Assembly (NCBI GenBank): GCA_964646345.1
Contig: CAZYDU010000002.1
Location: 38,802-102,801 of the forward strand
Length of the DNA: 64,000 nt
Source of the DNA: an uncultured Lachnospiraceae bacterium
Lineage (GTDB): Bacteria; Bacillota; Clostridia; Christensenellales; UBA1242
Direction of reading: 5' to 3'
Part shown: positions 21,767-37,343 of the stretch, piece after piece
Numbering within the stretch: the first letter of the stretch is position 1
Layout: every line of letters starts with the position of its first letter
Made by a program: the position numbers and the translations under genes
Notes under the pieces: generated by a model
The model's database searches: none
Seen by the model: only the letters and a program-made list of their open reading frames with translations
What the model was told of the DNA's origin: nothing

Positions 21767-22082
21767 TACGTTTCACGTAAAACATTTTTTATCAGACTTG
21801 ATTTTAAAGCAATTTCCAAAAGAATGCTTAATTGCAGAAGATTAATGTACTTTATCATACTTTACTTCGTATCATTTCGGACGGAGAGAATTTTTATGTC
21901 ATTTCGACTTTTCTCTTTTTGTGCCATTTCGACTGGAACGTTAGCGGAATGGAGAAATCCCTTTGTTAGAGCCACTCTATTTTTCCAAAATAAAAAAATC
22001 TCCAAACAAACATCAAACAACACAAAACGTATTGAAATTTGTTAATTTAGAGATTTAAGCGAAAAGGTATAAACCTTTATCT

Positions 22083-22111
22083 ATATACACCTATTACGGT
22101 GTATATTTTTA
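22083..22111 (+). terminator. Rho-independent terminator
   Basis: Stem ATATACACC/GGTGTATAT with a 6-nt loop, followed by TTTT. Confidence 0.55.
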
Positions 22112-22141
22112 TTATGTGACAAATTTAAAATATTATACCAA

Positions 22142-22576
22142 TTACATTTCTAAAATATAAGTTCCAGGTCCATCTAAAACGGTTTCAATTTCCATATATG
22201 TTTGAAAAACTCCGGTTTTAATTTCTCTTTGAGTTTTTAAATATTCACAGAATTTATTATAAATTTTTTCAGCCTGTTCAGCCTTGGCACTATAAATAAA
22301 GTCTGGTCTATTTGTGCCTTTTAAGTTAGCATAAAGCGTAAAGTTGCTAACAACAATCATCTCGCCACTAACATCTGAAAGCGAAAGATTGGTCTTGCCA
22401 TTTTCATCATCAAAAATGCGAAGCTTTAAAAGTTTATCTGCAAATTTCTTAATATTTTCTTCAGTATCATCTGCAGAAACCCCAAACAAAACAAGTTCCC
22501 CTTCACCAATTTCACTATATTTTTTCCCATTAGAGTAAAGCACACACTTTTTAACTTTTTGAATAACTGCTTTCAT
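22142..22576 (-). CDS. dtd: D-aminoacyl-tRNA deacylase
   Basis: MKAVIQKV start, the SNFTLYA (SQFTL-type) motif and a GPxT C-terminus. 144 aa. Confidence 0.9.
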   Translation of the reverse strand: MKAVIQKVKKCVLYSNGKKYSEIGEGELVLFGVSADDTEENIKKFADKLLKLRIFDDENGKTNLSLSDVSGEMIVVSNFTLYANLKGTNRPDFIYSAKAEQAEKIYNKFCEYLKTQREIKTGVFQTYMEIETVLDGPGTYILEM

Positions 22577-22616
22577 AACTTCTCCTTAATCTAATTCTAA
22601 ATCATTCAATTTTAAT

Positions 22617-22648
22617 AAAAAAATCGTATCAATAAAGATACGATTTTT
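22617..22648 (-). terminator. Hairpin terminator abutting the orphan tRNA-Tyr 3' fragment
   Basis: Stem ATCGTATC/GATACGAT (22623-22644) flanked by A- and T-runs. Read on the minus strand it follows the tRNA 3' end. Confidence 0.6.
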
Positions 22649-22705
22649 TGGTGGGAAGAAGTGGATTCGAACCACTGAAGTCGAAAGACGACGGATTTAC
22701 AGTCC
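22649..22705 (-). repeat. attL: orphan 3' 57 nt of tRNA-Tyr (direct repeat copy 1)
   Basis: Identical to 37031-37087 at every base I compared. Sequences diverge immediately outside on both sides. Confidence 0.85.
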
Positions 22706-22724
22706 ACCTAAAAATTCGTACAAT

Positions 22725-22823
22725 CACTGATTTTATCAGCTTTTACAAGATTTTTGACACAATTTTTTGACACAATTTTTTTAAATTTATCGTACTTAAA
22801 CACTGATTTTTTCAGCATTTACA
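22725..22823 (+). repeat. Left-end repeat cluster (candidate recombinase arm sites)
   Basis: Two copies of CACTGATTTT(A/T)TCAGC(T/A)TTTACA at 22725-22747 and 22801-22823. Between them is a tandem pair of TGACACAATTTT at 22755 and 22768. Confidence 0.5.
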
Positions 22824-22896
22824 TACTTTGGTAAAAAACTCAAAACCATGATTTTTTACTTGTAATGTATTCATTATAAGCAATAATTATTAAAAA

Positions 22897-23040
22897 TCAA
22901 AAGCTTTTTTCGATTTTAACCCTATTCTTCTTTAATTCTTCCATTGAACATTCAAACATTGCACATTCTTTACAATAACATTCATATCTGTACTTTACAT
23001 ATTCTTCCGGGCTTAATTCCCATTCTTCTTCTAATTCCAT
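22897..23040 (-). CDS. Small Cys-rich ORF (47 aa) coupled to rep
   Basis: Own translation: MELEEEWELSPEEYVKYRYECYCKECAMFECSMEELKKNRVKIEKSF. A GGAG overlaps the rep stop. The ORF is below the track size cutoff. Confidence 0.35.
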   Translation of the reverse strand: MELEEEWELSPEEYVKYRYECYCKECAMFECSMEELKKNRVKIEKSF

Positions 23041-23051
23041 AATTTTATCTC

Positions 23052-24179
23052 CTAAAATACCGGGTCATCATCTATCGGCTCAAATATTTTCATTTGCTTT
23101 CTTAAATCTTCTGCAGGTACTCCTAAGTACTTTGTGTCAAGTTTCTCCCACATACTTGGCGGAAGTATTCGCTTCAATTCATCTAAAGATTTATCTGCTT
23201 TTTCCAATATAATCTTTTCTCGACTTTCATACCTTAATATAAAATGTAATCTCTTTTCAAAACCTTGCCATGATTTATAATCACTACTTTTTTGAAATGA
23301 ATACTGCTCAAGTGGAGACCAGTTCGAAGATATAAAGACCGTATTATAATTGCCAAACTTATTATTATATCTACAACTTAAATCTAATGGGTACGCATCA
23401 GCTAAATTTAAAAAGATTGAAAAATCTATTTGTGAACGGAACTCGTCAAATATTACTACATTCTGATTTCTAAACTCGTCAAAATAGTTTTTCTCATATT
23501 GCTTAACCCAATATGCTTTGCTGTTTCCAAAGTACTTAAATAAATTATAAGTTTTTCCAACTCTCGAGGGACCATAGATATATACACATATAAAATCTTG
23601 TTTTTGAACATCTTCCATATCGTGCCTTAATAACTCTTGTCTCATTCGTTGAATTTTATCCAGATTCTTAAAAAAATGATTTGGATATGCTTTACTAATT
23701 TCATAATCAGTTGCACCATTCCTTATCATTTCAAGTAAGTTTGTTATATCCGTCCTTGCTCTTTCTTCAGCAAATACTCCAAGTTCATAAGGTCCTGAGA
23801 CTCTTGTATCAGATTTTGTACAATAATCACGACATTGTACATTACTACCTTTTGCCTTTTCAATATGTGCTTTCGGAAATAATTTCTTTATTGTCGAAAA
23901 TCTTTTACCAATCGAAAATACTAAAAACATTTGAAAATGTTCGGTTTCTTTTTCCTTTCCCCTTTCTCTCTGCAGAGCTGAATATTTAAAATGTTCTAAA
24001 TGTTCAATATACTCACACATTTCTTCGTCAGACTCGGTTGAATTATTAATTGTTAACATATATCGTCTAGCTTGTGAATTTTCGTCAATAATTTCTTCTT
24101 CTTTAACTATTTCAGAATCAGCATTAATTTCTTCTTCTTTTTTATTTTCTGAAACAGCTTCAATTTTTTCTTCTTCCAT
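23052..24179 (-). CDS. rep: Rolling-circle replication initiator, HUH endonuclease plus SF3 helicase (CRESS-type Rep)
   Basis: Motif I YMLTINN (aa 40-46), motif II HFQMF (81-85), motif III YCTK (119-122). Walker A GPSRVGKT (203-210), Walker B VVIFDEF (241-247), motif C ISSN (283-286). Confidence 0.8.
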   Translation of the reverse strand: MEEEKIEAVSENKKEEEINADSEIVKEEEIIDENSQARRYMLTINNSTESDEEMCEYIEHLEHFKYSALQRERGKEKETEHFQMFLVFSIGKRFSTIKKLFPKAHIEKAKGSNVQCRDYCTKSDTRVSGPYELGVFAEERARTDITNLLEMIRNGATDYEISKAYPNHFFKNLDKIQRMRQELLRHDMEDVQKQDFICVYIYGPSRVGKTYNLFKYFGNSKAYWVKQYEKNYFDEFRNQNVVIFDEFRSQIDFSIFLNLADAYPLDLSCRYNNKFGNYNTVFISSNWSPLEQYSFQKSSDYKSWQGFEKRLHFILRYESREKIILEKADKSLDELKRILPPSMWEKLDTKYLGVPAEDLRKQMKIFEPIDDDPVF

Positions 24180-24217
24180 TCGTATTCCCCCTGTGTAAGA
24201 AATTTAATGAAATTTGA

Positions 24218-24472
24218 TTAAAATATAAATACAACCCCCAAAATTACATTTAACATTAAAATAATTAACTCAAAAATTAAATATATCTTTCTTCTAAACA
24301 CAACCGACTTAATTATTTTTAAAATCGTTATAATCAGGTTTAAAACCAAAACCCCAATCGCAAATGGACTAAGTAAAACCATTCTCACAGCTTCATTAAC
24401 CCCATATGCTCCGAATAATGGAAGAAACACCCAACATTCGAATATCAATAATAATATTTGAATTATAATCAT
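24218..24472 (-). CDS. Small membrane protein (84 aa, about 3 TM)
   Basis: ATG at 24472 with an AAGGAG RBS. The longer track ORF starts at a TTG inside the iteron array and is unlikely. Confidence 0.5.
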   Translation of the reverse strand: MIIIQILLLIFECWVFLPLFGAYGVNEAVRMVLLSPFAIGVLVLNLIITILKIIKSVVFRRKIYLIFELIILMLNVILGVVFIF

Positions 24473-24487
24473 ATATACTCCTTTTGT

Positions 24488-24603
24488 GCGACACAGTGTG
24501 ACTTTTGCGACACAGTGGCGACACAATGCGACACAGAGAAACGATTTTAAAAATCGGCTCTAAAGTTCGATAAAATAACCATTTACAAGAATTGTGCGAC
24601 ACA
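24488..24603 (-). repeat. Five iterons (plus strand GCGACACA; minus strand TGTGTCGC)
   Basis: Copies start at 24488, 24507, 24518, 24528 and 24596, all in the same orientation. The last one abuts the ori stem. Confidence 0.65.
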
Positions 24604-24604
24604 G

Positions 24605-24643
24605 TGACGCAGTTGCTAGGTAATACTACCCGCAACTGCGTCA
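24605..24643 (-). promoter_or_regulatory. Putative rolling-circle origin stem-loop with TAGTATTAC nonanucleotide
   Basis: Perfect 12-bp stem (24605-24616 / 24632-24643). The 15-nt loop reads GGGTAGTATTACCTA on the minus (rep-sense) strand. Confidence 0.7.
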
Positions 24644-24845
24644 AAAATTCTTTCGCACATTCTCTCTTTTTAACGACTTTCCAAGTCGTCCTAGTAAGCT
24701 TTCAGCTTATTATTAATAAGAGAAATCTTTTTCTCAACGCAAAAATTGCTCTTAAAAACCCTGTTTTTATCTTACGTATAAATTGCACATTGCACTTTCT
24801 CTCCAGGTTTTAGTGTAAAAAATAATCTTATTTTTAATTATCCTG

Positions 24846-24947
24846 TTGACTTTTCTCAAATCTTGCATATAATATTAAGTATCAAAGCGAAGAAATTCGC
24901 CATGCTGTTTCAGACAGCCAAAAGTGGAAGAAATTCCACTTTTTTTA
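24846..24947 (+). ncRNA. Candidate small RNA (promoter, three hairpins, T-run)
   Basis: TTGACT (24846), a 16-nt spacer, TATAAT (24868). Hairpins at 24887-24900, 24904-24918 and 24923-24940, followed by T7. The last hairpin could equally be the minus-strand terminator of 25015-25299. Confidence 0.3.
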
Positions 24948-25014
24948 TTGCAAATATTTTCCAATAAAAAAATAATGACGTTTCTTTATTTTCTTTTTAC
25001 CTATATCTTGTATC

Positions 25015-25299
25015 TTAGAAATATCTAACATTCTTTATTGGTTTTTTATTTACACCCGACCAACGGGAAAAATTTGTATCAAAATAAGGCAAAGCATAAG
25101 TATTTCCTACACGAACTTGTTTTATTTTCTTACGATTTATCTTTTTATCCCTATCTTCTAACGAAGTTACTACATTTACATCACACATTCCATTATTATT
25201 AACTTCACGTATATAAACATAATGTCCACCAGGTCGTGGAATACCAAGATATTTATTCTCTATGTACCCTATTTGGTTCTTTATTTTCTTATAATTCAT
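25015..25299 (-). CDS. Hypothetical small basic protein
   Basis: ORF inside the element operon. No recognised family. Confidence 0.45.
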   Translation of the reverse strand: MNYKKIKNQIGYIENKYLGIPRPGGHYVYIREVNNNGMCDVNVVTSLEDRDKKINRKKIKQVRVGNTYALPYFDTNFSRWSGVNKKPIKNVRYF

Positions 25300-25320
25300 A
25301 AGCTTTATCCCTTTATATTT

Positions 25321-25749
25321 TTATCCAAAATCACTATCAAACTCACTTTCTTCCTGTATCGGTTCAATATTTGCTACCTGCTTCTGAACTATTACTGCAG
25401 GAACTAAAATATCAGGTTTTTGCTCAGGCGGTTTTTCAGAACCTTTTTCGGGTTTCTTATCCGTTTCTTTTTGATCTTTCATTATCTTTTTCATTTTTGC
25501 CCATAACCTAGAATGAAACATTTTCCATATCCAATTATGTGGCATTGTTTCAAAAGCTGTACGGAGTTCCAACTCCCTTTTTTCTCTTTCAAAAAGGGGT
25601 TTTTTATAAAGCTTTGTATATTCTCTTATAGACTTTTCTACAAATTTTATAGACTTTTCCGGCAAAGCATTAAGTCCAAATGAATCAGATAATTTATCAT
25701 ATTCTCCATAAATAAAACTACTTAAATCAGAAAAATCGTCAAATTCCAT
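25321..25749 (-). CDS. Hypothetical protein
   Basis: ORF with a GGGGGA-type RBS, directly downstream of the Zot-like gene. Confidence 0.45.
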   Translation of the reverse strand: MEFDDFSDLSSFIYGEYDKLSDSFGLNALPEKSIKFVEKSIREYTKLYKKPLFEREKRELELRTAFETMPHNWIWKMFHSRLWAKMKKIMKDQKETDKKPEKGSEKPPEQKPDILVPAVIVQKQVANIEPIQEESEFDSDFG

Positions 25750-25775
25750 ATAAATCCCCCCTTTTCTTTATTTTA

Positions 25776-26615
25776 TCATGCTACATCATTAACTTTTTTC
25801 TTTAAATAACCGGCAGGTGCTATAAAGTAATTTTCATTATTAAACTTTGTAATACCTTCCATTGAAAATTGATAACCACTTTCAGTGAAATATTCATATT
25901 TCAATTTCAAATTTTTTGTATATGAAACATCATAAAAAGCAAGCTTATTAGAATGACTATCATAGAAATTAAAAACATTAACATTAGTTGAATATTCAAC
26001 AGTTTTTCCAAGGTCTGAGTTAGCACCACTTTCTTTTGCCATTTGATATTTTTCAGCTGTTTCACAAGACTCAAATTCATGTGTTTTCCAAGTAATTTTA
26101 ATAACCCTACCAAACTCATCTTTCTTAACATCTAGCTTATCTATTACTATAAATTTATCACATAAAGCTCGAATATTTACGTCTATGTTTGCTAACCTTT
26201 GAGCTGTTAAATAAATCTTATAATCGTTATGTCTATGAATTTGAAAAAATCCATAAACTTCTTTTCGTAAATACATGCTCAAACGACTATCAAAATAACG
26301 TTGAGCTTCATCTAAAAATATACTTGAACCAACAGGAAAAAATTTTGTTTCAAAAAACTCATTGGGTAGTCCAATTTCAAAACCACTTACTTTATATCTA
26401 CTCCACTTTTTATTGATTTTAAAATCATAATCAGCAAAACATAAATGTTTTTGTGGTGGAAGCTCTAAATCAGAATAACCAACACATCTTAAATGTTCTA
26501 TTTCTCGTTTTGCAATATAATAGTCTTTAACATTATAAACCATTGTTTCATGTTGAAAATTAGTTAATAAAGCGGTTTTTCCGCTTCCACACTTACCAAT
26601 AATTCCAATCATCAT
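25776..26615 (-). CDS. Zot / pI-like P-loop morphogenesis ATPase
   Basis: Walker A GKCGSGKT at the N-terminus, Walker B IFLDEAQRYF, then FQIHRHNDYKIYLTAQRLANIDVNIR. This matches the Zot-family HRH...D...TQ...IR pattern. Confidence 0.75.
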   Translation of the reverse strand: MMIGIIGKCGSGKTALLTNFQHETMVYNVKDYYIAKREIEHLRCVGYSDLELPPQKHLCFADYDFKINKKWSRYKVSGFEIGLPNEFFETKFFPVGSSIFLDEAQRYFDSRLSMYLRKEVYGFFQIHRHNDYKIYLTAQRLANIDVNIRALCDKFIVIDKLDVKKDEFGRVIKITWKTHEFESCETAEKYQMAKESGANSDLGKTVEYSTNVNVFNFYDSHSNKLAFYDVSYTKNLKLKYEYFTESGYQFSMEGITKFNNENYFIAPAGYLKKKVNDVA

Positions 26616-26746
26616 AATATTAAATTCTCCCTATGTTATTTTTTCTTTACGCCTTGATTTTTGAGAAAGTTTGAGTATAATAATATATAGAACAACTCAG
26701 CCGATAAGGCACATTCTAAGCGGCAACGCTACAAAGAGTTGTTTTT

Positions 26747-27085
26747 TTATTGCTTAATTTTTTTATTATACCTTTTAATTGATTTTCTTGTCTTATTAGA
26801 AAATCTAAAATTAGATAATTTTTCAGAACTAAATTGTTTTTCAGTCTGCCAATATGGTGGACTGATTTTTGTTTTTCTTCTATCACGAGTTAACTTATCC
26901 GGGTTTTCATCCAAAATATAATAATCAACGCCTTTAACATTCTTTGAATGAGTAATTAAATTTGCTTTATAACTATGATTATATTTTGCAGAAATATAAG
27001 CCGGATGCGCTTTTTTATCTTTACCCATATGATTAGGGTTAGTATCTAATCTAAACTCGTTTTTTCTAAGATATTTTTTACTCAA
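26747..27085 (-). CDS. Hypothetical small basic protein
   Basis: K/R-rich 112-aa ORF between the repeat protein and the Zot-like gene. Confidence 0.45.
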   Translation of the reverse strand: MSKKYLRKNEFRLDTNPNHMGKDKKAHPAYISAKYNHSYKANLITHSKNVKGVDYYILDENPDKLTRDRRKTKISPPYWQTEKQFSSEKLSNFRFSNKTRKSIKRYNKKIKQ

Positions 27086-27160
27086 TATTTTTCTCCTTAG
27101 TTAAAAATTAATTGTGGGTAGTCTGCTTTTAAATCGTTTCCCACTCGTGGATTTTGTCTT

Positions 27161-30007
27161 TTACTCTTTTACATAAATGTTTGATGTTTGGTCATTTTCT
27201 GAAAATAATGAAATAGCAAAAATATCAGAAGTGATATCAGTGGAACTAGTTAATAAAGAAATAGAAAGTTCTTTACCTATTAATTCACTATCACCTGAAC
27301 CTATAAACTCAATATTTGCAATAGTTTCGCCATTTTCATTTAATTCTGTAGACTTAATTTTCCAACATACATTCTCATTGAAAATATCTAAAATAGTTGT
27401 TTCAGTATATTTATTAAAACCAATAGAATTATTAATCTTAGAAATTAAATCATCTAAAGAAACATAGCCAAATTTATTATTAGAAATTAAATCATTATAA
27501 TTAGCTTTGATTGTAGGAGCTTCACTTATTCTAATTGAATAAACAGAACTATATTCATTAGTTAAAGGAAAATCAGAAGAAGTAATAAAATTCCCACCTT
27601 CATAAAACTGAACTTGAAAATCAATTTGCGAAACAGTTTCTGGAACTGTCCAAGTATATAATCCAGTATCACTATTAAAAGTATTAACTAGACCATTTGT
27701 TACTATTGAAAAATCAGCGGAATCTAGTTCATTGCATGAGAATGAGCAACCTTGAAAATAATAATTATATGAAATTTCATTAAATTCATAATGATTTAAT
27801 TCTTCATTCCATGTATAAAAATATATTCTCTTAAAATCAAAATCGTCTCTCATATCATAAACATAAATATATTTAGAAACATAGGTAATATAGTTATTTA
27901 AAATATTATCCGGTACTACGTTTTCTTCAGAAAAAGAATTTTCATATAGAACATAAGAACCTAAACCATTATCACTATAGTTTTTAAAAAGAGTACTATA
28001 AGTTTTACTACCATAAGTAACATAAGTAGTGGCAATAGACTCAAGACTATTTGAAGAAATATCGTCAGTTATAACCAATCTCTCAAATTCAATCTTATAA
28101 TGTTGAGTAGAATATTGACAAGCGACAACTATATCAGCTTTTACATTAGAAAATTTTAAAAGAACATAAGAATAATCTTTTTTATAATCTGAATAATTAA
28201 CATCAACATTTAAATTATTATCTTCAAAATTAAATTCATTTTCATTATAAGAGCAATTAAAAATCTCTAGATTATCATAAGCTGAAGATAATGAGCCTGT
28301 AGATGTTAAAGTTCCATTAAATGTAATCATGTGAGTTGTTTGGTCAAAACTTAATACATATGTAGAAGTTTTTTGAGAAGAACCGGGAATAGTATAAAGA
28401 ATATAAATTTTTGAAAGATATTCCCCAGCATTATAAGGTAAAATTAAAGAATAAACATTAGTATCTTCAATAACTTCTTTTTCACTTACAAAATCAGCTA
28501 TAGAACCTGTAGACTCACTTAAATTATTAATAGAACTAGTATAATTTGTTGAAGAAAAAACACTATAAAGACCTTTTCCTGTAGAGTCAGAATTATTATC
28601 GCCTATAGCAAAAGAATAGGTTGGTAATTTTTCAAACACTGCAATATATGTTACCTGTTCAGTTATAGCTGTTGTTTCTATGTCTTCAACTAAGTTTTCT
28701 CCGTCAACCGACCAACCTAAAAAGGTGTAACCTGTTTTTGTTGGTGCTTCAGGTAAAATTATATAATCATTCTTTTCTACGTTTTTAGAAAAATATACAA
28801 CATCATCTACCATAAACTGAACTAGTGGGTGCTTTTCATTCCAATAATAAACGTAAGATTTTTCAAGTATTTCTCGACTGGTCATATCTTCCGTTACTCC
28901 ATGAGAACTATATGCAACTACATAAACTCTCTTTGCGGTCTCAATATCCACTTCGTCTTCACTTTTTCCACTAATTGCTGAAGCAATAGAAATTATAAAC
29001 TTGTCGTTTGTTGCTCTAAAATTATCTTCGTAAACTCCTACTGCTGTATCATTCATTCCAAGATTTGGATAAATCCATAATTGTAAATCCTGGTCGGTTA
29101 ATAAGCTTGGGTCAGATGTATAATTTAAATAATTCCAACGTAAAGAAATTATTATTTCACTTACATCTTTTAGGTCATAAGGCAAGTCTTCTTTCGTTAA
29201 AATATTACCTGAATTATCATAATAATAAAGACTATCTAGACTACTATTATAGCTTGCTTCAGAAAGTGTTTTTGGGTTCATGGTGTCGAACTTTATTACA
29301 TATTTTGTAAATTCATAATTTTCTTTTATTGGATTAGAAAAAATAATTTTTTCGTCAAAATCCTGAATAAAATTAAAATCAGATGTATAAGTTACACCAT
29401 TATATGTTAAGCTTTCTCCAGCATTCAATTTAACATCTACCTGCAGGGCATTTACTTGCCATACTGCATAGTATTCAGTTTCAGCATTTTCAACAAGAAC
29501 TTCAGATAAATCTATAACATTTTCTCCGTCAACCGACCAACCTAGAAATTTATAGTTTGCACGTTTTGGCTCAGAAATTGTAAGTGTATCTAAGGTTTCG
29601 CCTTTAATATATCCATTTCTGCACACTAGCTCTTGACTATAGTTATTTACAGGAGTCTTTATGTTATAAAAGTTTACATAATTTAAATCTTCATAAATTC
29701 CGTATATTCTTTGGGAAAAACCAGTAGTTACTTTATTACCTTCAATTAAAGTTTTCCCGTCAAAAGAATAACCCATAAAACGCTTATCTTCAACTTCAGG
29801 TAAGTCAGCTAGTGTATACTCAGTACCTACAGGTATAACCACTTTATTAACAATTTCATTGTCTACCACTACAGATAAAGTAGCTGTATTTGACTCAGAT
29901 ACATATGTATCAGCAGTTGTAGATACATTTACTTTAAAATCATTTTTATCAAAATATGAATTCCACAATGCCACAGCTTCAGAACTGCCTTTTGTAGATA
30001 CTACCAT
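27161..30007 (-). CDS. Large surface/adsorption-type protein with Listeria-Bacteroides (Flg_new-type) repeats
   Basis: Repeated GY(T/K)FLGWSVDGEN...Y(I/Y)AV(F/W) modules, also visible as a DNA repeat near 28694 and 29519. The frame stays open for 97 more codons upstream, to 30298. Confidence 0.7.
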   Translation of the reverse strand: MVVSTKGSSEAVALWNSYFDKNDFKVNVSTTADTYVSESNTATLSVVVDNEIVNKVVIPVGTEYTLADLPEVEDKRFMGYSFDGKTLIEGNKVTTGFSQRIYGIYEDLNYVNFYNIKTPVNNYSQELVCRNGYIKGETLDTLTISEPKRANYKFLGWSVDGENVIDLSEVLVENAETEYYAVWQVNALQVDVKLNAGESLTYNGVTYTSDFNFIQDFDEKIIFSNPIKENYEFTKYVIKFDTMNPKTLSEASYNSSLDSLYYYDNSGNILTKEDLPYDLKDVSEIIISLRWNYLNYTSDPSLLTDQDLQLWIYPNLGMNDTAVGVYEDNFRATNDKFIISIASAISGKSEDEVDIETAKRVYVVAYSSHGVTEDMTSREILEKSYVYYWNEKHPLVQFMVDDVVYFSKNVEKNDYIILPEAPTKTGYTFLGWSVDGENLVEDIETTAITEQVTYIAVFEKLPTYSFAIGDNNSDSTGKGLYSVFSSTNYTSSINNLSESTGSIADFVSEKEVIEDTNVYSLILPYNAGEYLSKIYILYTIPGSSQKTSTYVLSFDQTTHMITFNGTLTSTGSLSSAYDNLEIFNCSYNENEFNFEDNNLNVDVNYSDYKKDYSYVLLKFSNVKADIVVACQYSTQHYKIEFERLVITDDISSNSLESIATTYVTYGSKTYSTLFKNYSDNGLGSYVLYENSFSEENVVPDNILNNYITYVSKYIYVYDMRDDFDFKRIYFYTWNEELNHYEFNEISYNYYFQGCSFSCNELDSADFSIVTNGLVNTFNSDTGLYTWTVPETVSQIDFQVQFYEGGNFITSSDFPLTNEYSSVYSIRISEAPTIKANYNDLISNNKFGYVSLDDLISKINNSIGFNKYTETTILDIFNENVCWKIKSTELNENGETIANIEFIGSGDSELIGKELSISLLTSSTDITSDIFAISLFSENDQTSNIYVKE

Positions 30008-30288
30008 ATCAGTAGAATAACGATTAAATCCGAATGTAAACGTTAATTCATCAGTTAATTTATAAACATTTCCTACATCATAAAAAGCATAATTATAAGT
30101 ACAAGTTAAATGATTGTTTGAATAATCTACAACTTTACATGGCTCGTCATTAACTAATACTTTATAGTTCTCATTTGAATCAAATTTTAAGCTTTTATCA
30201 GAGTGAAACTCAGCTTTATAAAGTGTATCATCAGAACCAGTTAAAACTACTTGGTCAAAGTCAAAATCTATATTTATTACATTATTAG

Positions 30289-30543
30289 TTATTTCAACTT
30301 ATTTGGTTTTATAATATCTTCAATTTTACCAAATATTCCACCTTCAGCGGTGTAATATTCATTTATTTTAATACCACTATACACACCCGAACAGCATATT
30401 AAAACTACACATAAACTAGCTACAATCATTCTGGAACCAGGTACTTTTATTAGAAGAACTACAACACCAATTATTAAGGCAATTAATAAAGAAAAGTTTA
30501 AAATGTCTTGAAATGAAATTCCAAATATCAACCAACTAAGCAT
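30289..30543 (-). CDS. Small membrane protein (84 aa)
   Basis: Two to three hydrophobic segments. Overlaps its upstream neighbour by 8 nt. Confidence 0.5.
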   Translation of the reverse strand: MLSWLIFGISFQDILNFSLLIALIIGVVVLLIKVPGSRMIVASLCVVLICCSGVYSGIKINEYYTAEGGIFGKIEDIIKPNKLK

Positions 30544-31843
30544 ATTCTTCTACCCCCTGTACTTTAAATTCTCCAAATGTATTTGTTTCAAAACCACCAA
30601 AGGTTATTCCACATTTATTCAGGTAATCGGTATCTATTTCTACTTGAATAATAATGTCATTAATGTAAGAGTCATAGTAGAATTTAAAATCAGTCTTTAA
30701 TGCAAATTTATAAACACCAACATCTTCAGTTGCAATTAATTCAAAATCTCTAATGTTTTCATTAAATTCAGCTTTTACAATGGACTTTCCATAAAGATAT
30801 GAACCGGTTTCTGCATCAGGATTAATATTTGCTGAACCATTCAACATTCCCATTAAACTTTCAGAAGATTTTGTCATGTCTCCATCATGCACATTAACTC
30901 GAATAATATAATAACTTTGGATTTCTTTTACTATTTTATTGTAATTATCCCCATCAAGAGATACTTTTGAATAACTTGAACCATCATACTCGTAATAATC
31001 GAAATAATCGCCAAAGTTAAAGATAATGTCTTGACTTGTACCTTTTTCTACACCACGAATTGAGTTGTAGAGAATTGTTGAAAAATAATTTAAGTCAAAT
31101 GATGCATATCCAGAATAACAACTATATGTATGTTTATTTAAAATTAAATAAGTTTGCGTAGAAACCTGTTCATAATAATCAACCTTGAATGTTTCATCGA
31201 GATTGTTTTTTACTTCTTTTTTTAAATCCATGTTATCGACAGAATAATAATAATCATAATAAGTTTTATCGCCTTTGAGTTTCATACCATAAAGTTTTTT
31301 ATTTTCTTCGTCACCAATTTGTATTCTAAAAAGAGAATCAGTATCAAGTGGACTTGCCATATCATTATTAATAGTAGTTTCAAATCCGTCAGCAGAAGCA
31401 TATTGAAATGAATTTAAATATTTAAAACTAGAATTTTGATATAAAAATGAATAACCGATAGTTTTTTCTTGAATTGGCCAACCTTTAGACCACTCCGACT
31501 CAGAACGTTTATCAAACCCAGTTCGATTAAAATAACTTAAGCTAAAATCTAAGCCTTTATCAGAATTTGCAACATATTGCACACCTTTCGAATAAAATGC
31601 ATTTTGGTCTTCGTCTCGCACATAATTAAAAACCACTTCAAATACATTATCATATAAATTAAGCTCTATAAATGGCTTCTTTTCTGTTGTTCCGTCAGCT
31701 TTCTTTATTTGCTGATACCCAATATTAAATGTTTGCGATACTATCTTATCCGGTGCTGTGTTAAGCATGTAAACATACCACACGTCTACACCTATTGCGA
31801 TAAATGATATAATCGCCATAAAAAATATTAAAAATTTCTTCAT
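30536..31843 (-). CDS. Hypothetical protein with N-terminal signal/anchor
   Basis: N-terminus MKKFLIFFMAIISFIAIGV, followed by a 400-aa Y/N/D-rich region. Confidence 0.5.
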   Translation of the reverse strand: MKKFLIFFMAIISFIAIGVDVWYVYMLNTAPDKIVSQTFNIGYQQIKKADGTTEKKPFIELNLYDNVFEVVFNYVRDEDQNAFYSKGVQYVANSDKGLDFSLSYFNRTGFDKRSESEWSKGWPIQEKTIGYSFLYQNSSFKYLNSFQYASADGFETTINNDMASPLDTDSLFRIQIGDEENKKLYGMKLKGDKTYYDYYYSVDNMDLKKEVKNNLDETFKVDYYEQVSTQTYLILNKHTYSCYSGYASFDLNYFSTILYNSIRGVEKGTSQDIIFNFGDYFDYYEYDGSSYSKVSLDGDNYNKIVKEIQSYYIIRVNVHDGDMTKSSESLMGMLNGSANINPDAETGSYLYGKSIVKAEFNENIRDFELIATEDVGVYKFALKTDFKFYYDSYINDIIIQVEIDTDYLNKCGITFGGFETNTFGEFKVQGVEEYA

Positions 31844-31908
31844 AGTTTCTCCTTTTCTTTGGATTTGAATTGACTAACTCGTCAGTGAATATACATCACT
31901 ATATTCAG

Positions 31909-31941
31909 AAAATAGCTAGAGTTTTTATCTAGCTATTTTTT
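31909..31941 (-). terminator. Hairpin terminator inside the element
   Basis: Stem AAAATAGCTAG/CTAGCTATTTT flanked by A/T runs, downstream of 31977-32435. Confidence 0.5.
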
Positions 31942-31976
31942 CGTATTTATTCATATTCCAAATGTTATATACTTTT

Positions 31977-32435
31977 TTATTTGCCTATATTTTCAAGTTG
32001 AGCTTTATATAAATTGTAATAATTAATTAAAGTTCTTCTTGATAATACGGATTTTGGGAAAAGTCGAATTGTTGAGCCGTCAGATAGTTCGTATAACATA
32101 CAAACATACACTCTTTCAATTTCCCCTTCTTCATTAATCTTTGGTTCTTCGATTAATGACTTGGTTTTAACAAAATCTTTTAAACCGGCATTCTTCATTG
32201 AAAGAAGCAAGTCATAAAAATTATCAGGGTCATTAAATTCTACAGTTACTCCATTAAATAAAGTAACAATGTATGGGTGTCTTGTACCATATTTTGACTT
32301 TATCTCGTGAAATTTTGCAGATTTAACAATGCAATTAATGTCTTCCCTAACAGTTAAATCCCTTTTACTTTCAGCTTCATTTACTGAATTTTTTGTTTCA
32401 ATTTCTGAAACATTTTCTACTACTTCGTTTTTCAT
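31977..32435 (-). CDS. Hypothetical protein
   Basis: 152-aa ORF with an AGGAG RBS. Confidence 0.45.
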   Translation of the reverse strand: MKNEVVENVSEIETKNSVNEAESKRDLTVREDINCIVKSAKFHEIKSKYGTRHPYIVTLFNGVTVEFNDPDNFYDLLLSMKNAGLKDFVKTKSLIEEPKINEEGEIERVYVCMLYELSDGSTIRLFPKSVLSRRTLINYYNLYKAQLENIGK

Positions 32436-32591
32436 AATTTTCTCCTACTTTTCGTTTATTTTTGATTTTAAGTAAAGGCTAGTTCCGGACCTATGCCGAT
32501 ACTTAATGGTATCATATACTCTAATAAATACAGGGAAATTAGAATATATGATTGGTAGTGGGTAGTATTTAAAGTGCCCCCACCAACATCA

Positions 32592-32774
32592 CTATTTCGT
32601 GCCTATTTTTGAGAAAAATGTTAAACCAATTTTTTCGAAAATATTAACATTTATCCAATCAGTTATATTTGGCAACCAGTTAAAAGCTTTACACAAGATT
32701 GCTACTAATGTTAAAACTAAAGCTATTAAAACTAGAGAACCTAGTATAATTAATATTCCTTTTAATACCTTCAT
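32592..32774 (-). CDS. Small single-TM protein (candidate virion coat protein)
   Basis: 60 aa with a strong GGGGGAG RBS and one long hydrophobic helix. Sits upstream of the structural block. Confidence 0.4.
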   Translation of the reverse strand: MKVLKGILIILGSLVLIALVLTLVAILCKAFNWLPNITDWINVNIFEKIGLTFFSKIGTK

Positions 32775-32821
32775 AACTCCCCCTTTATAACCAAATTGCT
32801 ATTGCAATCTAATTATTAAAA

Positions 32822-33019
32822 TTAATATCTACCCGGTCGTAATTCATTGATTTTTGAATTTACATCAGTTAAATTTGTATCATTAAAATTCTTTCTTATC
32901 CAATTAGATAAGCTTTCATAAGCTGTTTTCCAATCTTTAACTTGTATCATCAACTTACGTTTTTCAATATTACATTCATGTTTTAGAACTTCAATCTTTT
33001 CTTCAGCTGTTTGTTCCAT
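32822..33019 (-). CDS. Hypothetical small coiled-coil protein
   Basis: ORF overlapping its upstream neighbour by 17 nt. Confidence 0.35.
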   Translation of the reverse strand: MEQTAEEKIEVLKHECNIEKRKLMIQVKDWKTAYESLSNWIRKNFNDTNLTDVNSKINELRPGRY

Positions 33020-33224
33020 TATTAAGCTCCTTCATTAAATTTTTAACAATTTCAAAGGCATTTTGAAAGCCTTTGTCAAAATCAGTTTTAGTATCTAATT
33101 TTGAATAGAAATCAACTTTTTCAGTTAAGTTTCGGATAAAATAGTCCTGTTTTGCGTTTTTTATTCTAAAACATGATAATTCATGCTCTAAACTAATTAT
33201 TCTATTTTGTTGAGTAACACCCAT
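33003..33224 (-). CDS. Hypothetical small protein
   Basis: ORF with a GGGAG RBS. First gene after the structured intergenic region. Confidence 0.35.
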   Translation of the reverse strand: MGVTQQNRIISLEHELSCFRIKNAKQDYFIRNLTEKVDFYSKLDTKTDFDKGFQNAFEIVKNLMKELNNGTNS

Positions 33225-33506
33225 TTGTTTTTATCTCCCATTTTTTATTTTGAGCTGTCTCATCAGTAGTTATTTGCTCAATTCTAACTAGACAAGGGGA
33301 AGTTAGTTAAAAACCCCTTGTTTCGACTTAATTCCGTTGGCAGTTATGCTTCAATTCTTTAGGGCGAAGCAACCTTTTCAGCTGTAAAAATACCCCTGTA
33401 TAACATTAACGATTAAAAACTAATAAAAGGTTTATTATATTTTTATTTGGAGATAAAAAATAATGAAAATACCATACTTATAGTTACCTGTCAGCCACCA
33501 ACGGAG

Positions 33507-33764
33507 TTAATTGTATAAGTCAGGGTGATATGGTCTTGTTAAAAAATCATACATACCGTGGTAAAATTCACGCTTACCTTTAGAGAGTGTTATTCCTGAT
33601 TTGGTTTTTTTCAAATTCATGTCTGAAGCATATTCAGCACAAGTAATTCGAGTTCTTTCATTCTTGTAATAACCACTACTACCATACTTTTCCATGTTGT
33701 CATAAAAAACTTTTTCGCCAACTTTTAAACCAGAATAATATGCACTTGTTTTAGCCATAAGCAC
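33507..33764 (-). CDS. Hypothetical small protein
   Basis: ORF in the element, tightly packed against 33767-34060. Confidence 0.4.
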   Translation of the reverse strand: MLMAKTSAYYSGLKVGEKVFYDNMEKYGSSGYYKNERTRITCAEYASDMNLKKTKSGITLSKGKREFYHGMYDFLTRPYHPDLYN

Positions 33765-33766
33765 AC

Positions 33767-34060
33767 CTAACGTTTCTTTTTCTTTGCATTAAAACAATTA
33801 GCATTGTCTTTACCCCTATCCAGGTAACCAGCTCTATATGCTCTTTGAGCTTTAGTAAGCTTAATACCCTTTCCGTCTTTAGTACGTTTGGTTTCGTTCC
33901 TGTTAGTCTTAGCATAACCATGCTTAAGCTCTACTGCATACTTTCTTGATTTTTCATTAGGATTTAACAATATTACTACATTGCCTGTTTTTGGATTAAT
34001 CCAATCATGACCTTCTCCCGAATGAAATTTTGCAGGTTTTCCCTTTTTGTAATTTGACAT
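33767..34060 (-). CDS. Hypothetical small basic protein
   Basis: K/R-rich 97-aa ORF with a GGGGGG-type RBS. Confidence 0.4.
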   Translation of the reverse strand: MSNYKKGKPAKFHSGEGHDWINPKTGNVVILLNPNEKSRKYAVELKHGYAKTNRNETKRTKDGKGIKLTKAQRAYRAGYLDRGKDNANCFNAKKKKR

Positions 34061-34117
34061 AAAATTATTTCCCCCCCTTATTTGATTTTTATATTCACAG
34101 CTTTTAGCTGAAAATAT

Positions 34118-34438
34118 CTAATAAAATTTACAACCCTTTATATTCTTATATTTTTCCTTATTTGCTTTAGATAACTTATTAGATGCCGATATTAAATCAT
34201 AAACAACTCTTTCACCGGTGTCTAAATCATTAACAATATGTGTTACTTTTTTATTTAAATTACCTTTTGTTGGAGAAGTTTGATAACTTGTTGAAAATCT
34301 GCCTTTATGTGGTTTATCTAATTCAATACTTCTATCCCACCTACCGGTATCATGCGGAGCTTCAACAATTTTCTTTCCTTTTAAATAAAACTTACCATTT
34401 CTATCTCTATCATAGATTGTTTGTAAAAATATACCCAT
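34118..34438 (-). CDS. Hypothetical small basic protein
   Basis: First gene of the long leftward operon. Confidence 0.4.
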   Translation of the reverse strand: MGIFLQTIYDRDRNGKFYLKGKKIVEAPHDTGRWDRSIELDKPHKGRFSTSYQTSPTKGNLNKKVTHIVNDLDTGERVVYDLISASNKLSKANKEKYKNIKGCKFY

Positions 34439-34511
34439 ATTTTCAATCCTTTCCCCTTGACTTTATTTTTTTAATTTTGATATCATATTTTCAACAAGGG
34501 GGATTAAAAAT

Positions 34512-34742
34512 ATGAATATAGAACAAGCTTTAAAAAATGCCAAAGAATTTATTGATTTTAACTTAGGACAAAATAGAATTTCAAATTTTAACCTAAATGA
34601 ACCAATTATTTATGTAGCAAGCAAAAAAATTTTAGAAGACGACCCAGATTTAAAAATCTTTAAATCTAAATTAAATAAAATCGGTTATCAAATCTCGTCT
34701 ACAGAACAATCAAACAAATTTACAATCAATAAAATTCTCTAA
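34512..34742 (+). CDS. Hypothetical small protein
   Basis: GGGGGA RBS, with the terminator hairpin 34742-34770 immediately after. Confidence 0.4.
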   Translation: MNIEQALKNAKEFIDFNLGQNRISNFNLNEPIIYVASKKILEDDPDLKIFKSKLNKIGYQISSTEQSNKFTINKIL

Positions 34743-34771
34743 GTAACAGCTTTTGCTGTTACTATTTTTAT

Positions 34772-35005
34772 TTAATATTCAAAATCTGTTGTAACTTTTC
34801 GAGTTCCTTTTATTGCAGACCAATCTCCATAAACATCATTTGTTTTTGAACAAAAAAATACTTTATCCGAAAAATTATAATCATCTTTTATATAAATTGT
34901 CCTACTTGGTTTTCCATTTTTATCAAGTAATTTAAAATGTGTTCCTTTAGGTAAAAACCTTAATTCACAAGTTCCAATAAAACTTTTACTATGTTTCTTA
35001 ATCAT
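34772..35005 (-). CDS. Hypothetical small protein divergent from the XRE regulator
   Basis: 77-aa ORF with an AGGAGCAAAG RBS region. Confidence 0.4.
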   Translation of the reverse strand: MIKKHSKSFIGTCELRFLPKGTHFKLLDKNGKPSRTIYIKDDYNFSDKVFFCSKTNDVYGDWSAIKGTRKVTTDFEY

Positions 35006-35028
35006 ATATCTTTGCTCCTTTTTTATTG

Positions 35029-35145
35029 AATTTTAGATTTATATTCTATATTTACAATTAAAATATAGACAACTATTCTATTTTTGTCAAATAAAATTAG
35101 AATATATTTCTATTTTTTTTTAAAAAATTAGATTTTATTGAAAAT
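35029..35145. promoter_or_regulatory. Divergent promoter/operator region of the XRE regulator
   Basis: Three direct copies of AA(T/A)(T/A)TTAGA(T/A)TT(A/T)TAT-like sequence start near 35029, 35094 and 35125. There is also a 9-bp inverted repeat TCTATATTT/AAATATAGA (35045-35069). Confidence 0.4.
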
Positions 35146-35186
35146 GCAAAAAAAAATATATAATATCTACTTAGGAGATAAAAAAA

Positions 35187-35510
35187 ATGGAAATAAACCA
35201 AAATCTAAAAAAAATAAGAAATCAAAATAAAATAACTCAAAAAGAATTAGCAGAAAAATCAGGTGTTCCATATGCAAATTACAACAAATATGAAACAACA
35301 ACAACAATTCCAGATATTGAAACACTAATAAAATTAGCTAATTTTTACAACATCTCGCTAGATTATTTAGTGGGAAGAAAATTCGGAAACGATATCGGTT
35401 TTCTAACCGACGACCAATTCCAAAACTTAAAAATTATTCTTTCACTATCTGAAAAAAATCAATATAAAGTGTTTGGCTATGCCCTATCACTTTTACAAAA
35501 TCAAAATTAA
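35187..35510 (+). CDS. XRE-family (Cro/CI-type) HTH regulator
   Basis: ITQKELAEKSGVPYANYNKYE...LIKLANFYNISLDYLVGR is the classic HTH_3 pattern. Confidence 0.85.
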   Translation: MEINQNLKKIRNQNKITQKELAEKSGVPYANYNKYETTTTIPDIETLIKLANFYNISLDYLVGRKFGNDIGFLTDDQFQNLKIILSLSEKNQYKVFGYALSLLQNQN

Positions 35511-35613
35511 ATGAGAAAATAATCAACTAAACCACCCTATTGAAAATCTAAACAATTAGTTATATAATACCTTAACCACTTTAGTGGAATAAAAATTAAG
35601 GAGTTATATAAAA

Positions 35614-35679
35614 ATGAGTAATGAAGAAATTAGGCAAAAAATTGCCGAAAATTTTTATATAACACAACTATTCAACTAG
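35614..35679 (+). CDS. Mini-ORF (21 codons) with strong RBS upstream of the integrase
   Basis: AAGGAG at 35598-35603 and ATG at 35614. The -1 frame is open from 35634 into the integrase ATG. Confidence 0.25.
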   Translation: MSNEEIRQKIAENFYITQLFN

Positions 35680-35879
35680 AAACTAAATTAACAAACATTC
35701 AACAAGAACTAAATAAGCTAGAAGTTGAAACTAACCAATGTATTAATGCTGTTGCACTACTACAAGGCTATTTTCGGGCTAAATTATCAGAAGAAAACAA
35801 ATCAGATAAAAAGATAAACAAAGATAAATCTAAAGAAAAAAGTGTCAACATAAAACAGCAAAAAAGGAGCGATGTTGAC

Positions 35880-36875
35880 ATGAAATATATATCTTATAGA
35901 CTATCCGATAACAGATATATCGGAAGAAAAACAATAAATAAAAAACAAATTTCCGTTTACGGAAAAACACAAAAAGAGTGTTTAAATAAATTAAAACAAG
36001 CTATAGATAAATTTTATCAGCCTACACTATTGATTGAACAAAAACCTAAAAGTAAAACATTAATTGATTATTTTAATGAATGGTATACTCAAAATAAAGA
36101 ACCTTTTATTTCTGAAGGAACTAAAAAAGACATCATGCTTGTAAAATCTAAAATTGAACCACTACATAACTTAGCAATTAATAAAATAAATAAAACAATA
36201 ATTTTTGACTTTTTACAGACTCTTGAAAATAACCGAAGTAAAGAAAAAGTAATTTTATATTTAAAAGCAGTATTCAAATCAGCTATTTTAGATAATGAAA
36301 TAAAAGACAATCCTTTTAATAATTTAAAAACTGCACCTAGAATAATAAAAACAAAACCCGCATTTACTTATGAAGAACAAAAGAAAATAATAAAATTAAT
36401 CCAAAATTCCCCACTCAAACCAATTATTTTAATTTATCTTGTTACTGGAATGAGAAAAAATGAATTTAACTTTACAAGCATAGAAAAAGATATTGATTTT
36501 AAAACAAATATCTTAAAAGCGGTTAATTTAAAAGGTAGAAATAAAATTACAAGGTATAAGCAAATTAAACTTAATAAACAAGCAATAAGTCTTATAATGA
36601 ATAATTTAGACGTAATTCACAAATATAATTCAGAAACAACATATAGGGAATTTAATGAGTTATTAAAAATAAATAATATAAATGGTTCAATAGTTACCTG
36701 TAGACACACATTTGCAACAAATTGCTTTTATTTAGGAAAACCCGAATTATTAATATCTAGAGAAATGGGACATTCAAAAAGTCAAATAACAAAAGATGTA
36801 TACACTGATATTGACTATAATTTATCTAAAGAAAAGATTATTAAATTATATAATAATTTATATAATTTAGACTAA
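35880..36875 (+). CDS. int: Tyrosine site-specific integrase
   Basis: N-terminal arm-binding-type domain (RYIGRKTINKKQISVYGKTQKECLNKL). Catalytic residues: R (TGMRKNE), HxxR (CRHTFAT), H (GHS) and Y (DVYTD). Confidence 0.9.
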   Translation: MKYISYRLSDNRYIGRKTINKKQISVYGKTQKECLNKLKQAIDKFYQPTLLIEQKPKSKTLIDYFNEWYTQNKEPFISEGTKKDIMLVKSKIEPLHNLAINKINKTIIFDFLQTLENNRSKEKVILYLKAVFKSAILDNEIKDNPFNNLKTAPRIIKTKPAFTYEEQKKIIKLIQNSPLKPIILIYLVTGMRKNEFNFTSIEKDIDFKTNILKAVNLKGRNKITRYKQIKLNKQAISLIMNNLDVIHKYNSETTYREFNELLKINNINGSIVTCRHTFATNCFYLGKPELLISREMGHSKSQITKDVYTDIDYNLSKEKIIKLYNNLYNLD

Positions 36876-36881
36876 AAATTT

Positions 36882-37017
36882 TGACACAATTTCTGACACA
36901 GTTTTTTAAGATTTTACTTAATATTTGTTACAAAATCTTATTTTTTGTAACAGAGAATAAACAAAAAATATATAACAATAAAAAAAGTTGTAAACACTGA
37001 ATTTTCCAGCATTTACA
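36882..37017 (+). repeat. Right-end repeat cluster (candidate recombinase arm sites)
   Basis: TGACACAATTT at 36882 and TGACACAGTTT at 36894. CACTGAATTTTCCAGCATTTACA at 36995-37017 lies inside a GTTGTAAA/TTTACAAC hairpin. Confidence 0.5.
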
Positions 37018-37030
37018 ACCCCAAAACATA

Positions 37031-37087
37031 TGGTGGGAAGAAGTGGATTCGAACCACTGAAGTCGAAAGACGACGGATTTACAGTCC
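37031..37087 (-). repeat. attR: direct repeat copy 2 (3' part of the intact tRNA-Tyr)
   Basis: Identical to 22649-22705. Confidence 0.85.
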
Positions 37088-37116: not shown

Positions 37117-37152
37117 AAAAATAAAACTAACAATCATAAGATTATTAGTTAA

Positions 37153-37227: not shown

Positions 37228-37229
37228 AT

Positions 37230-37305: not shown

Positions 37306-37343
37306 AAAATCTATTTTTTTTATTTGAAATAGACAAAACAATA

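Follow-up and report, generated by a model that had tools for sequence, protein, structure and literature searches.

A nonanucleotide stem-loop and iterons upstream of a circovirus-like rep gene in an integrated bacterial element

The hairpin, its repeats and the initiator gene

The 64-kb stretch of DNA analysed here (the window), from an uncultured Lachnospiraceae bacterium, contains a 14.4-kb integrated element that carries a gene, rep, for a replication initiator like those of the CRESS viruses, whose DNA is single-stranded and circular and codes for a Rep. Upstream of rep the original prediction, made from the sequence alone, had placed a stem-loop with a nonanucleotide in its loop and five iterons in the same orientation, and had called the arrangement the textbook layout of a CRESS origin. 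All claimed coordinates were verified base by base against the window sequence. Read along the minus strand, from 5' of the hairpin to rep, the features are the following (ORF, open reading frame).

24653-24659, minus strand: inverted partial iteron TGTGCGA, 5' of the stem, pairable with 24593-24599 and forming an outer helix in the fold (overlooked in the original prediction)
24605-24643, minus strand: putative origin hairpin, a perfect 12-bp stem with the 15-nt loop GGGTAGTATTACCTA (from sequence, DNA fold and relatives)
24620-24628, minus strand: nonanucleotide TAGTATTAC, with a predicted nick between T24622 and A24621 (TAGTATT/AC), by inference from duck circovirus Rep
24605-24612, minus strand: degenerate iteron CTGCGTCA, coinciding with the 3' arm of the stem (from sequence; overlooked in the original prediction)
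24596-24603, minus strand: proximal iteron TGTGTCGC, 1 nt past the stem
24536-24595, minus strand: A+T-rich 60-nt spacer with the blocks TTGTAAAT (24581-24588) and TTTTTAAAATCG (24542-24553), from a footprint alignment of the window with relatives L002 and L003
24488-24535, minus strand: distal cluster of four TGTGTCGC iterons (starts 24528, 24518, 24507 and 24488)
24218-24472, minus strand: 84-aa membrane ORF that separates the origin from rep and has several hydrophobic stretches (overlooked in the original prediction)
23052-24179, minus strand: rep, 375 aa, an HUH(Q) nuclease joined to a superfamily-3 helicase (from Pfam, a porcine circovirus 2 match and alignment)

On the minus strand the 5' arm of the stem (24643-24632) reads TGACGCAGTTGC and the 3' arm (24616-24605) reads GCAACTGCGTCA; all 12 bp are paired, and they close a loop (24631-24617) in which TAGTATTAC occupies 24628-24620, exactly as predicted. 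Folding of this region, which had been proposed as a check, gave a clear answer: as single-stranded DNA (ssDNA) the 71-nt stretch has a predicted energy of -21.8 kcal/mol against -7.8 +/- 2.0 kcal/mol for shuffled sequences (z = -6.95), and none of 200 shuffles was as stable. The 64-kb window has only seven perfect stems that reach 12 bp and close a loop of 3-20 nt, and first-order Markov random sequences yield 0-2. The six others are flanked by A and T runs in the manner of terminators, and the origin hairpin alone is without such runs. Taken by itself, the nonanucleotide is not significant, since the window has two copies, a number reached by 7 of 100 shuffles. The other of the two, at 10620, was set aside as a chance match because there is no hairpin there and it lies outside the element.

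The repeats are equally distinctive. The plus-strand iteron GCGACACA occurs exactly five times in 64 kb, on one strand only, with starts at 24488, 24507, 24518, 24528 and 24596; 0.33 copies would be expected, and none of 100 shuffles reaches five. The five copies announced by the original prediction are thus all exact and are the only ones in the window. A degenerate GTCAC (24502-24498), also overlooked in the original prediction, lies within the distal cluster and maintains its 10-11-nt phasing. Only 3 nt separate the end of the cluster from the ribosome-binding site (24478-24484) of the 84-aa ORF. Together, the fold z score, the iteron shuffles and the rarity of such stems exclude a chance origin of the hairpin and repeats. 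An Rfam scan of 22000-37700 returned only tRNAs, with no known RNA family at the hairpin.

The spacer between the two iteron groups also carries conserved sequence. L005, L007 and L064 have a TTGTAAATGCTGAAAA-like block as well, and a YTTTAS element stands 17 nt after TTGTAAAT, giving a conserved TTGTAA-N17-YTTTAS spacing without the invariant -10 bases. This is a poor fit to the -10 box of sigma-70 promoters; the conserved blocks may bind a host factor or act as a promoter of an unusual kind.

The rep gene is genuine. Its product has the motifs LTINN (I), HFQ (II) and YCTK (III, with Tyr119) of the nuclease and GPSRVGKT (Walker A), IFDEF (Walker B) and SSN (motif C) of the helicase, and it matches Viral_Rep (1.1e-13) and RNA_helicase (6.7e-08) in Pfam. 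It also matches full-length porcine circovirus 2 (PCV2) Rep (PDB 7LAR) with an E value of 1.9e-21 over residues 38-295, across both the nuclease and the helicase domains. A first search gave 150 homologues; a larger one gave 13,613 cluster representatives at E <= 1e-3, 146 of them at E <= 1e-30. The catalytic positions are invariant across an alignment of 43 homologous sequences. Before motif I the protein has an acidic, Glu-rich N-terminal extension of ~35 aa whose length varies among relatives. An imperfect 36-nt tandem duplication (78% identity) in the 5' part of rep, at 24086-24157 on the minus strand, encodes this extension.

Two small ORFs flank rep. As the 84-aa membrane ORF lies between the repeats and rep, the rep start is 309 nt past the last iteron; this ORF is 66% identical in L002 over 38 aligned residues and 41% identical in L003. 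Distant relatives have no counterpart of it, and there rep follows directly after the distal iterons. On the other side, 11 nt past the rep stop, a 47-aa Cys-rich ORF (22900-23041, minus strand) is 66% identical in L002 and was also called as a gene on a Logan contig with an identical Rep.

The non-coding region that contains the origin spans 542 nt (24473-25014) and forms many small ssDNA hairpins (z = -7.9). The part upstream of the origin hairpin (24644-25014, minus strand) holds a row of them in sequence that is unalignable with L002 or L003. They may be candidates for a minus-strand origin, a packaging signal or terminators.

Conservation of the arrangement among relatives

Loci for comparison were taken from metagenome and genome contigs and from five circular genomes of bajarodino viruses, and hairpins in them were found by script. 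A scan of a genome collection, in which a single-protein query uses close patterns only, gave a single relative. All 20 non-redundant relatives with enough upstream DNA, whose Reps are 32-84% identical to that of the window, have the hairpin, the nonanucleotide and iterons. Their hairpins, 100-460 nt upstream of rep, consist of a perfect stem of 8-18 bp and a loop that contains xAGTATTAC and measures 7-21 nt, in most cases 9-11 nt. The textbook layout named in the original prediction therefore recurs throughout this set, and the motif, whose loss from homologous elements that keep the Rep would have spoken against it, is present in 20 of 20. A further relative, L053, has the nonanucleotide and iterons but an atypical 5-bp stem that encloses an inner hairpin; L052 was left out of the count since its contig holds too little upstream DNA.

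AGTATTACC is invariant across the 20 aligned origins. In the 5' arms of the stems, the ten innermost positions have a mean identity of only 32% between loci, and yet every stem is perfectly paired. A fixed-column covariation score of 0.444 was obtained against 0.194 +/- 0.032 for shuffles, none of 500 of which reached it. Across 262 kb of family loci there are 86 NANTATTAC sites, 18 of which have a stem of at least 9 bp, and every listed hairpin is upstream of rep. In the window as in every relative, the strand that bears the nonanucleotide is the gene-sense strand.

The iterons are conserved in arrangement more than in sequence. In every relative one or two proximal copies, 8 nt apart in period, adjoin the stem base or overlap it (for example, aactgcGTCGCattGTCGC), and are followed by an A+T-rich spacer of 50-70 nt, by 2-4 distal iterons with a 10-11-nt period and then by a ribosome-binding site. 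This site belongs to rep, except in the window, L002 and L003, where it serves the small membrane ORF. The iteron core varies by lineage (GTCGC, GTAAC, GACGC, GTCGA and TGTAAA; GACGC in L062 and L064), as would be expected if each Rep recognises its own repeats. In a quick Rep tree built by the unweighted pair group method with arithmetic mean, the sequences did not sort cleanly by iteron core.

In the alignment of the window with its two closest relatives, L002 and L003, conservation starts at the hairpin and stops at the last iteron, and the upstream flank is unalignable. These limits bracket the functional unit at ~24488-24660, essentially the interval of the original prediction. L002 has a different outer pair, ATTACGCG/CGCGTAAT, which by eye is also complementary. 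The gene order Zot, an ORF of ~110-145 aa, origin and rep is kept in nearly all loci with enough sequence, with L007 as the exception.

Searches of IMG/VR gave another picture. An alignment-based protein scan yielded CRESS-like relatives only, with identities no higher than 42% and almost always on ~2-kb contigs; the strict origin pattern had no match, and a looser one matched four small CRESS origins and unrelated sequences. The family that combines Zot with this Rep seems to be absent from the IMG/VR copy searched, though dozens are found in gut metagenome assemblies, and virus-calling pipelines may under-detect it.

The integrated element

The original prediction had placed the hairpin inside a bacterial integrated element, and its borders could be defined. 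It is a unit of 14,382 bp delimited by 57-nt direct repeats, 100% identical, of the 3' part of a tRNA-Tyr gene, and it carries its own integrase. Its main features besides the origin and rep are listed here.

22649-22705: left attachment (att) repeat, identical to the 3' part of tRNA-Tyr
25776-26615, minus strand: Zot/pI-like assembly ATPase, two genes upstream of the origin (Pfam Zot 8.9e-09; PHROG Zot-like)
35187-35510, plus strand: XRE-type repressor (Pfam HTH_3 1.2e-17)
35880-36875, plus strand: tyrosine integrase (Pfam Phage_integrase 5e-08), adjoining the right att repeat
37031-37087: right att repeat, within the intact tRNA-Tyr gene

From ~34.4 kb down to rep the genes are throughout on the minus strand, the strand that bears the nonanucleotide. 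The ATPase scores 35.5 bits against Pfam Zot, where the curated cut-off is 20.3, and matches PHROG 197 with an E value of 1.6e-16. Coupling proteins, type IV secretion genes and MOB relaxases were absent from the 20 ORFs scanned, and Pfam and PHROG gave no capsid-like match in the element. The element also contains a run of small ORFs; three small membrane ORFs (32592-32774, 30289-30543 and 24218-24472) did not match a known coat family in the Pfam and PHROG scans.

Two larger genes lie upstream of Zot on the minus strand. One, at 27161-30007, encodes a 948-aa protein with a Listeria-Bacteroides repeat (Flg_new, 7.6e-12); homologues with this repeat occupy the matching position in L058 and L062. 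The other, at 30536-31843, encodes a 435-aa protein with an N-terminal membrane segment. Both are possible receptor-binding or tip proteins.

The attachment site is the last gene (Tyr) of a cluster of six tRNA genes (Tyr, Thr, Phe, Asp, Met and Pro; 37031-37610, minus strand) that adjoins the element, and its 3' end is restored by the integrated copy. The host DNA has ~29% G+C, and one relative comes from a Clostridia genome bin. Around the att core there are further repeats. TGACACARTT has four copies in the window, all flanking the core (22755, 22768, 36882 and 36894; 0.45 expected), and a 27-nt repeat occurs three times nearby (22721, 22797 and 36991), so that the repeat clusters span 22721-22823 and 36866-37017. 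They are probably arm-type binding sites for integrase or excisionase. They have TGTGTC/GACACA in common with the iterons, without the conserved GTCGC core.

Almost every gene of the element has a homologue in one relative, the metagenome contig L003 (1-14644, run SRR13978210; Rep 61-62% identical), where the order is circularly permuted. Its rep end is followed by the small ORFs and then by the integrase end with no host DNA between them, which is the junction expected of an excised circle, and L003 resembles a sister element in excised, circular form. A Logan contig of 14,386 nt with the exact Rep (L081, run SRR14160743), close in length to the 14,382-nt unit, ends inside the att repeat; it was considered as a circle and rejected, a break of the assembly graph at the 57-bp repeat being the simplest explanation. 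As such a break at the att repeats explains it, L081 was not used as evidence of excision.

Proposed function, alternatives and related systems

The site is very probably the double-strand (plus-strand) rolling-circle origin cognate to the Rep of a 14.4-kb temperate element resembling filamentous phages, as judged from its sequence and that of its relatives. It has what characterises CRESS-type rolling-circle origins: a nonanucleotide NANTATTAC in a stem-loop, iterons in the same orientation, a Rep with HUH and superfamily-3 helicase domains, a loop motif conserved together with that Rep and a stem kept by compensatory change. Replication would begin on double-stranded DNA, where Rep would bind the GTCGC-type iterons, those at the stem base first and the distal cluster next. 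The inverted repeat would then be extruded or melted, exposing TAGTATTAC as ssDNA, and Tyr119 would cut the nonanucleotide between T7 and A8 (between 24622 and 24621 on the minus strand) and stay attached to the 5' end. According to the Pfam/InterPro text for PF02407, Reps of this kind cut inside AGTATTAC at a hairpin, and duck circovirus Rep cleaves TATTATT/AC and requires a Watson-Crick pair between positions -4 and +1 (PMC9973303); this pair is present in the nonanucleotide of the window (T24625/A24621). The free 3'-OH would prime a host polymerase while the helicase domain unwinds the DNA. After one round Rep would cut the regenerated site and rejoin the ends, so that a circular single strand of gene sense is released, presumably to be exported through the Zot/pI-like machinery and formed into virions. 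The distal iterons, 3 nt before the ribosome-binding site of the small ORF and rep, probably also let Rep repress its own synthesis.

Several observations do not fit this proposal well. The two innermost stem pairs of the closest relative, L002 (GCGG/CCGC), are lost in the window copy, which gives the 15-nt loop; most relatives have loops of 9-11 nt, yet loops of 14 and 21 nt occur in L007 and L066. The predicted fold also contains a 4-bp mini-helix (GGTA/TACC) that covers part of the nonanucleotide. Between the hairpin and the small ORF and rep no convincing sigma-70-type promoter for rep was found, which leaves the autoregulation step weakly grounded; the best rep-sense promoter match (24737-24709) is on the upstream side of the hairpin. 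The Pfam and PHROG scans identified no major coat protein in the element. As to the covariation, the fixed-column count pairs only 63% of cells, a figure that is understated because loop lengths differ between sequences, and the per-sequence stems were selected for pairing, so that the argument leans on the improbability of 20 out of 20.

Some of these points would suit a family origin that is real but of which the window holds a decayed, non-firing copy in a domesticated or defective prophage. The loss of the two inner stem pairs relative to L002 and the enlarged loop would then be signs of decay, and we found no evidence of excision, the 14,386-nt Logan contig being explained by a graph break. 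We regard this as unlikely, given that rep is full length with all catalytic residues, that the 57-nt att repeats are still 100% identical, that integrase, repressor and Zot are intact ORFs, that all five iterons are exact and that relatives with 14- and 21-nt loops exist. That no major coat protein was identified would suit another reading. The site could be mainly an origin of transfer, with Rep as the relaxase for helper conjugation and the element as an integrative mobilizable element; Kazlauskas et al. (2019) treat the related pCRESS1-3 as integrated plasmids with FtsK-like ATPases, single-strand-binding and surface-exclusion proteins, and report no known viral structural proteins in them. 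In the window, however, the ATPase matches Zot/pI, the 20 ORFs scanned include no coupling protein, type IV secretion gene or MOB relaxase, and relatives with a like Rep, origin and Zot have been deposited as circular Inoviridae genomes from rodent faeces, all of which makes a primary role in transfer very unlikely. Replication and transfer roles are mutually compatible, since the nick chemistry would be identical.

The position of the promoter match and of the distal repeats raises another issue, namely whether the hairpin and repeats are transcriptional signals only, a terminator or attenuator of the upstream genes together with operators for a repressor of rep, with no role in nicking. Transcripts starting upstream of the hairpin may cross it, and the distal repeats stand directly upstream of the ribosome-binding site of the small ORF and rep. 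An intrinsic terminator was nevertheless rejected, as the stem has no 3' T run on either strand and a terminator scan made no call at the hairpin. Signals of this kind would also leave unexplained why the loop is invariant down to 32% Rep identity while the stem varies freely, and why it is the exact site cut by homologous Reps, and we find this reading scarcely credible.

A rolling-circle origin of the proposed kind has a close counterpart in the circoviruses (PCV1, PCV2 and duck circovirus). In these the stem-loop is followed by the hexamer repeats H1-H4 on the rep side. The window has the identical nonanucleotide, (T/A)AGTATTAC, in the loop of a stem of ~11-12 bp, short repeats in the same orientation directly 3' of the stem on the rep side, and a Rep with an HUQ-type motif II (HFQ), a motif III of the form YCxK and a superfamily-3 helicase. 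The differences are as clear. The element is 14.4 kb long and temperate, with integrase, repressor and Zot, whereas circoviruses are ~2 kb with a capsid gene; its iterons are GTCGC-type 8-mers in proximal and distal groups ~60 nt apart; a small membrane ORF stands between origin and rep; and its Rep has the acidic N-terminal extension of ~35 aa. Although its origin would work like a CRESS origin, the element is outside Cressdnaviricota: its length is 14.4 kb, Zot and an integrase are among its genes, and a capsid gene is absent by Pfam and PHROG.

Among bacterial elements, those with CRESS-like Reps have been described as pCRESS1-9 (Kazlauskas et al. 2019, PMC6668415). The pCRESS2 elements measure 3-28 kb, are mostly found in tRNA genes of Clostridia and encode a tyrosine integrase; the same paper calls pCRESS elements plasmids, none encoding known viral structural proteins, and its tables annotate one pCRESS2 element (Hungatella) with Zot. 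By pairwise scores and motifs the window Rep appears closest to this group, being 35-36% identical (E ~1e-55) to two pCRESS2 Reps as against 25% for pCRESS1 and p4M (pCRESS3), with the motif-C Asn and with YxxK rather than YLxH in motif III. The tyrosine recombinase, att repeats and integration into a tRNA gene likewise match pCRESS2. In p4M itself no comparable hairpin was found with a strict or relaxed motif. The main text of PMC6668415 mentions neither nonanucleotide nor stem-loop; its supplements, which were searched for the former and not for the latter, do not mention a nonanucleotide, and in the passages of them examined 'hairpin' occurs only within quoted Pfam text. Passages of the pCRESS2 literature that we examined leave the origin undescribed.

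The bajarodino viruses (GenBank PQ006165, PQ006124, PQ006184, PQ006121 and PQ006138) have circular genomes of 5.7-10.2 kb classified as Inoviridae. They resemble the window element in having Zot followed by a Rep 32-36% identical to its own, and, upstream of rep, a CTAGTATTA(C) hairpin with proximal and distal iterons after it. They differ in that motif II of their Rep is HTH (HUH) rather than HFQ, and in their smaller genomes, in which no integrase is annotated; the origin is likewise unannotated in the records. A search of the literature found no paper on 'bajarodino'. An inovirus Rep family with a superfamily-3 helicase was noted by Roux et al. (2019, PMC6813254), and their protein family iPF_00203 may be the family of the window Rep.

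The pI/Zot-like morphogenesis ATPase, which scores above the Pfam cut-off, links the element to filamentous phages (Tubulavirales, inoviruses). In such phages the nicked, packaged strand is the gene-sense strand. The window is like Ff phages (M13/f1) in placing the nonanucleotide, the predicted nick site, on this strand, in its hairpin-rich intergenic region beside the initiator gene and in its assembly ATPase of pI/Zot type. The Ff initiator gpII has no helicase domain and never surfaced as a relative of the window Rep in any of our searches. The nick sequence and origin architecture of Ff also differ from those of the window. A commentary on taxonomy from 2026 states that filamentous phages freely swap replication modules. 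With plasmid pMV158 the likeness is in layout only: in both, a nick site in a hairpin loop adjoins initiator-binding repeats, in a bipartite arrangement with more direct repeats tens of bases downstream. The nick sequence of pMV158 is TACTACG/AC, which differs from NANTATTAC; the motif here is TAGTATTAC, and RepB of pMV158 lacks a helicase domain. According to the abstract of PMC1851628, the second set of direct repeats of pMV158 (the bind locus) is 84 bp from the nic locus. RepB belongs to the HUH lineage that has been placed at the root of the pCRESS and CRESS Reps.

This type of element is already on record, through pCRESS elements in 2019, an inovirus Rep with helicase in the same year and circular inovirus genomes with this Rep in GenBank. 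The architecture of the origin is predicted by the Pfam description of the Rep family and would not surprise a specialist; as far as we searched the literature, no published description of its conservation was found. The proposed derivation of CRESS viruses from bacterial plasmid-like elements has so far rested on Rep phylogeny, and here the cis-acting site is seen to be conserved too, with a nonanucleotide identical to that of circoviruses, a matching hairpin position and iterons on the same side. A replication module typical of one virus realm is joined to the morphogenesis module of another in temperate gut elements, which bears on how 'CRESS-like' Rep matches in gut viromes are read. Since these elements live in culturable-type Firmicutes, circovirus-type initiation could become open to bacterial genetics, with a bacterial test bed in which mini-replicons, induction and swaps of Rep-iteron specificity between the GTCGC, GTAAC and GACGC lineages could be studied.

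We would put forward only tentatively, as a possibility less probable than its opposite, that Rep, the TAGTATTAC hairpin and bipartite GTCGC-type iterons form the replicon normally used by a widespread clade of filamentous phages that are temperate, encode Zot and infect gut Clostridia, and that this clade is a living counterpart, in bacteria, of the ancestor from which circoviruses, nanoviruses and smacoviruses came, conserved in origin as well as in protein. If so, small 'eukaryotic' CRESS contigs with the same nonanucleotide and TGTGTCGC-type iterons, such as L070 and L075, may replicate in bacteria or may exchange replication modules with such phages. The likeness of their iterons to those of the window may reflect the query, because the search pattern demanded GTCGC. 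Both are CRESS-type contigs of ~2.2 kb in which an TAGTATTAC hairpin (L070 1092-1137 and L075 1770-1812, both minus strand) is followed by three copies of TTGTGTCGC or of TTGTCGC, with the iteron core of the window, and their Reps are ~33% identical to that of the window in the nuclease domain.

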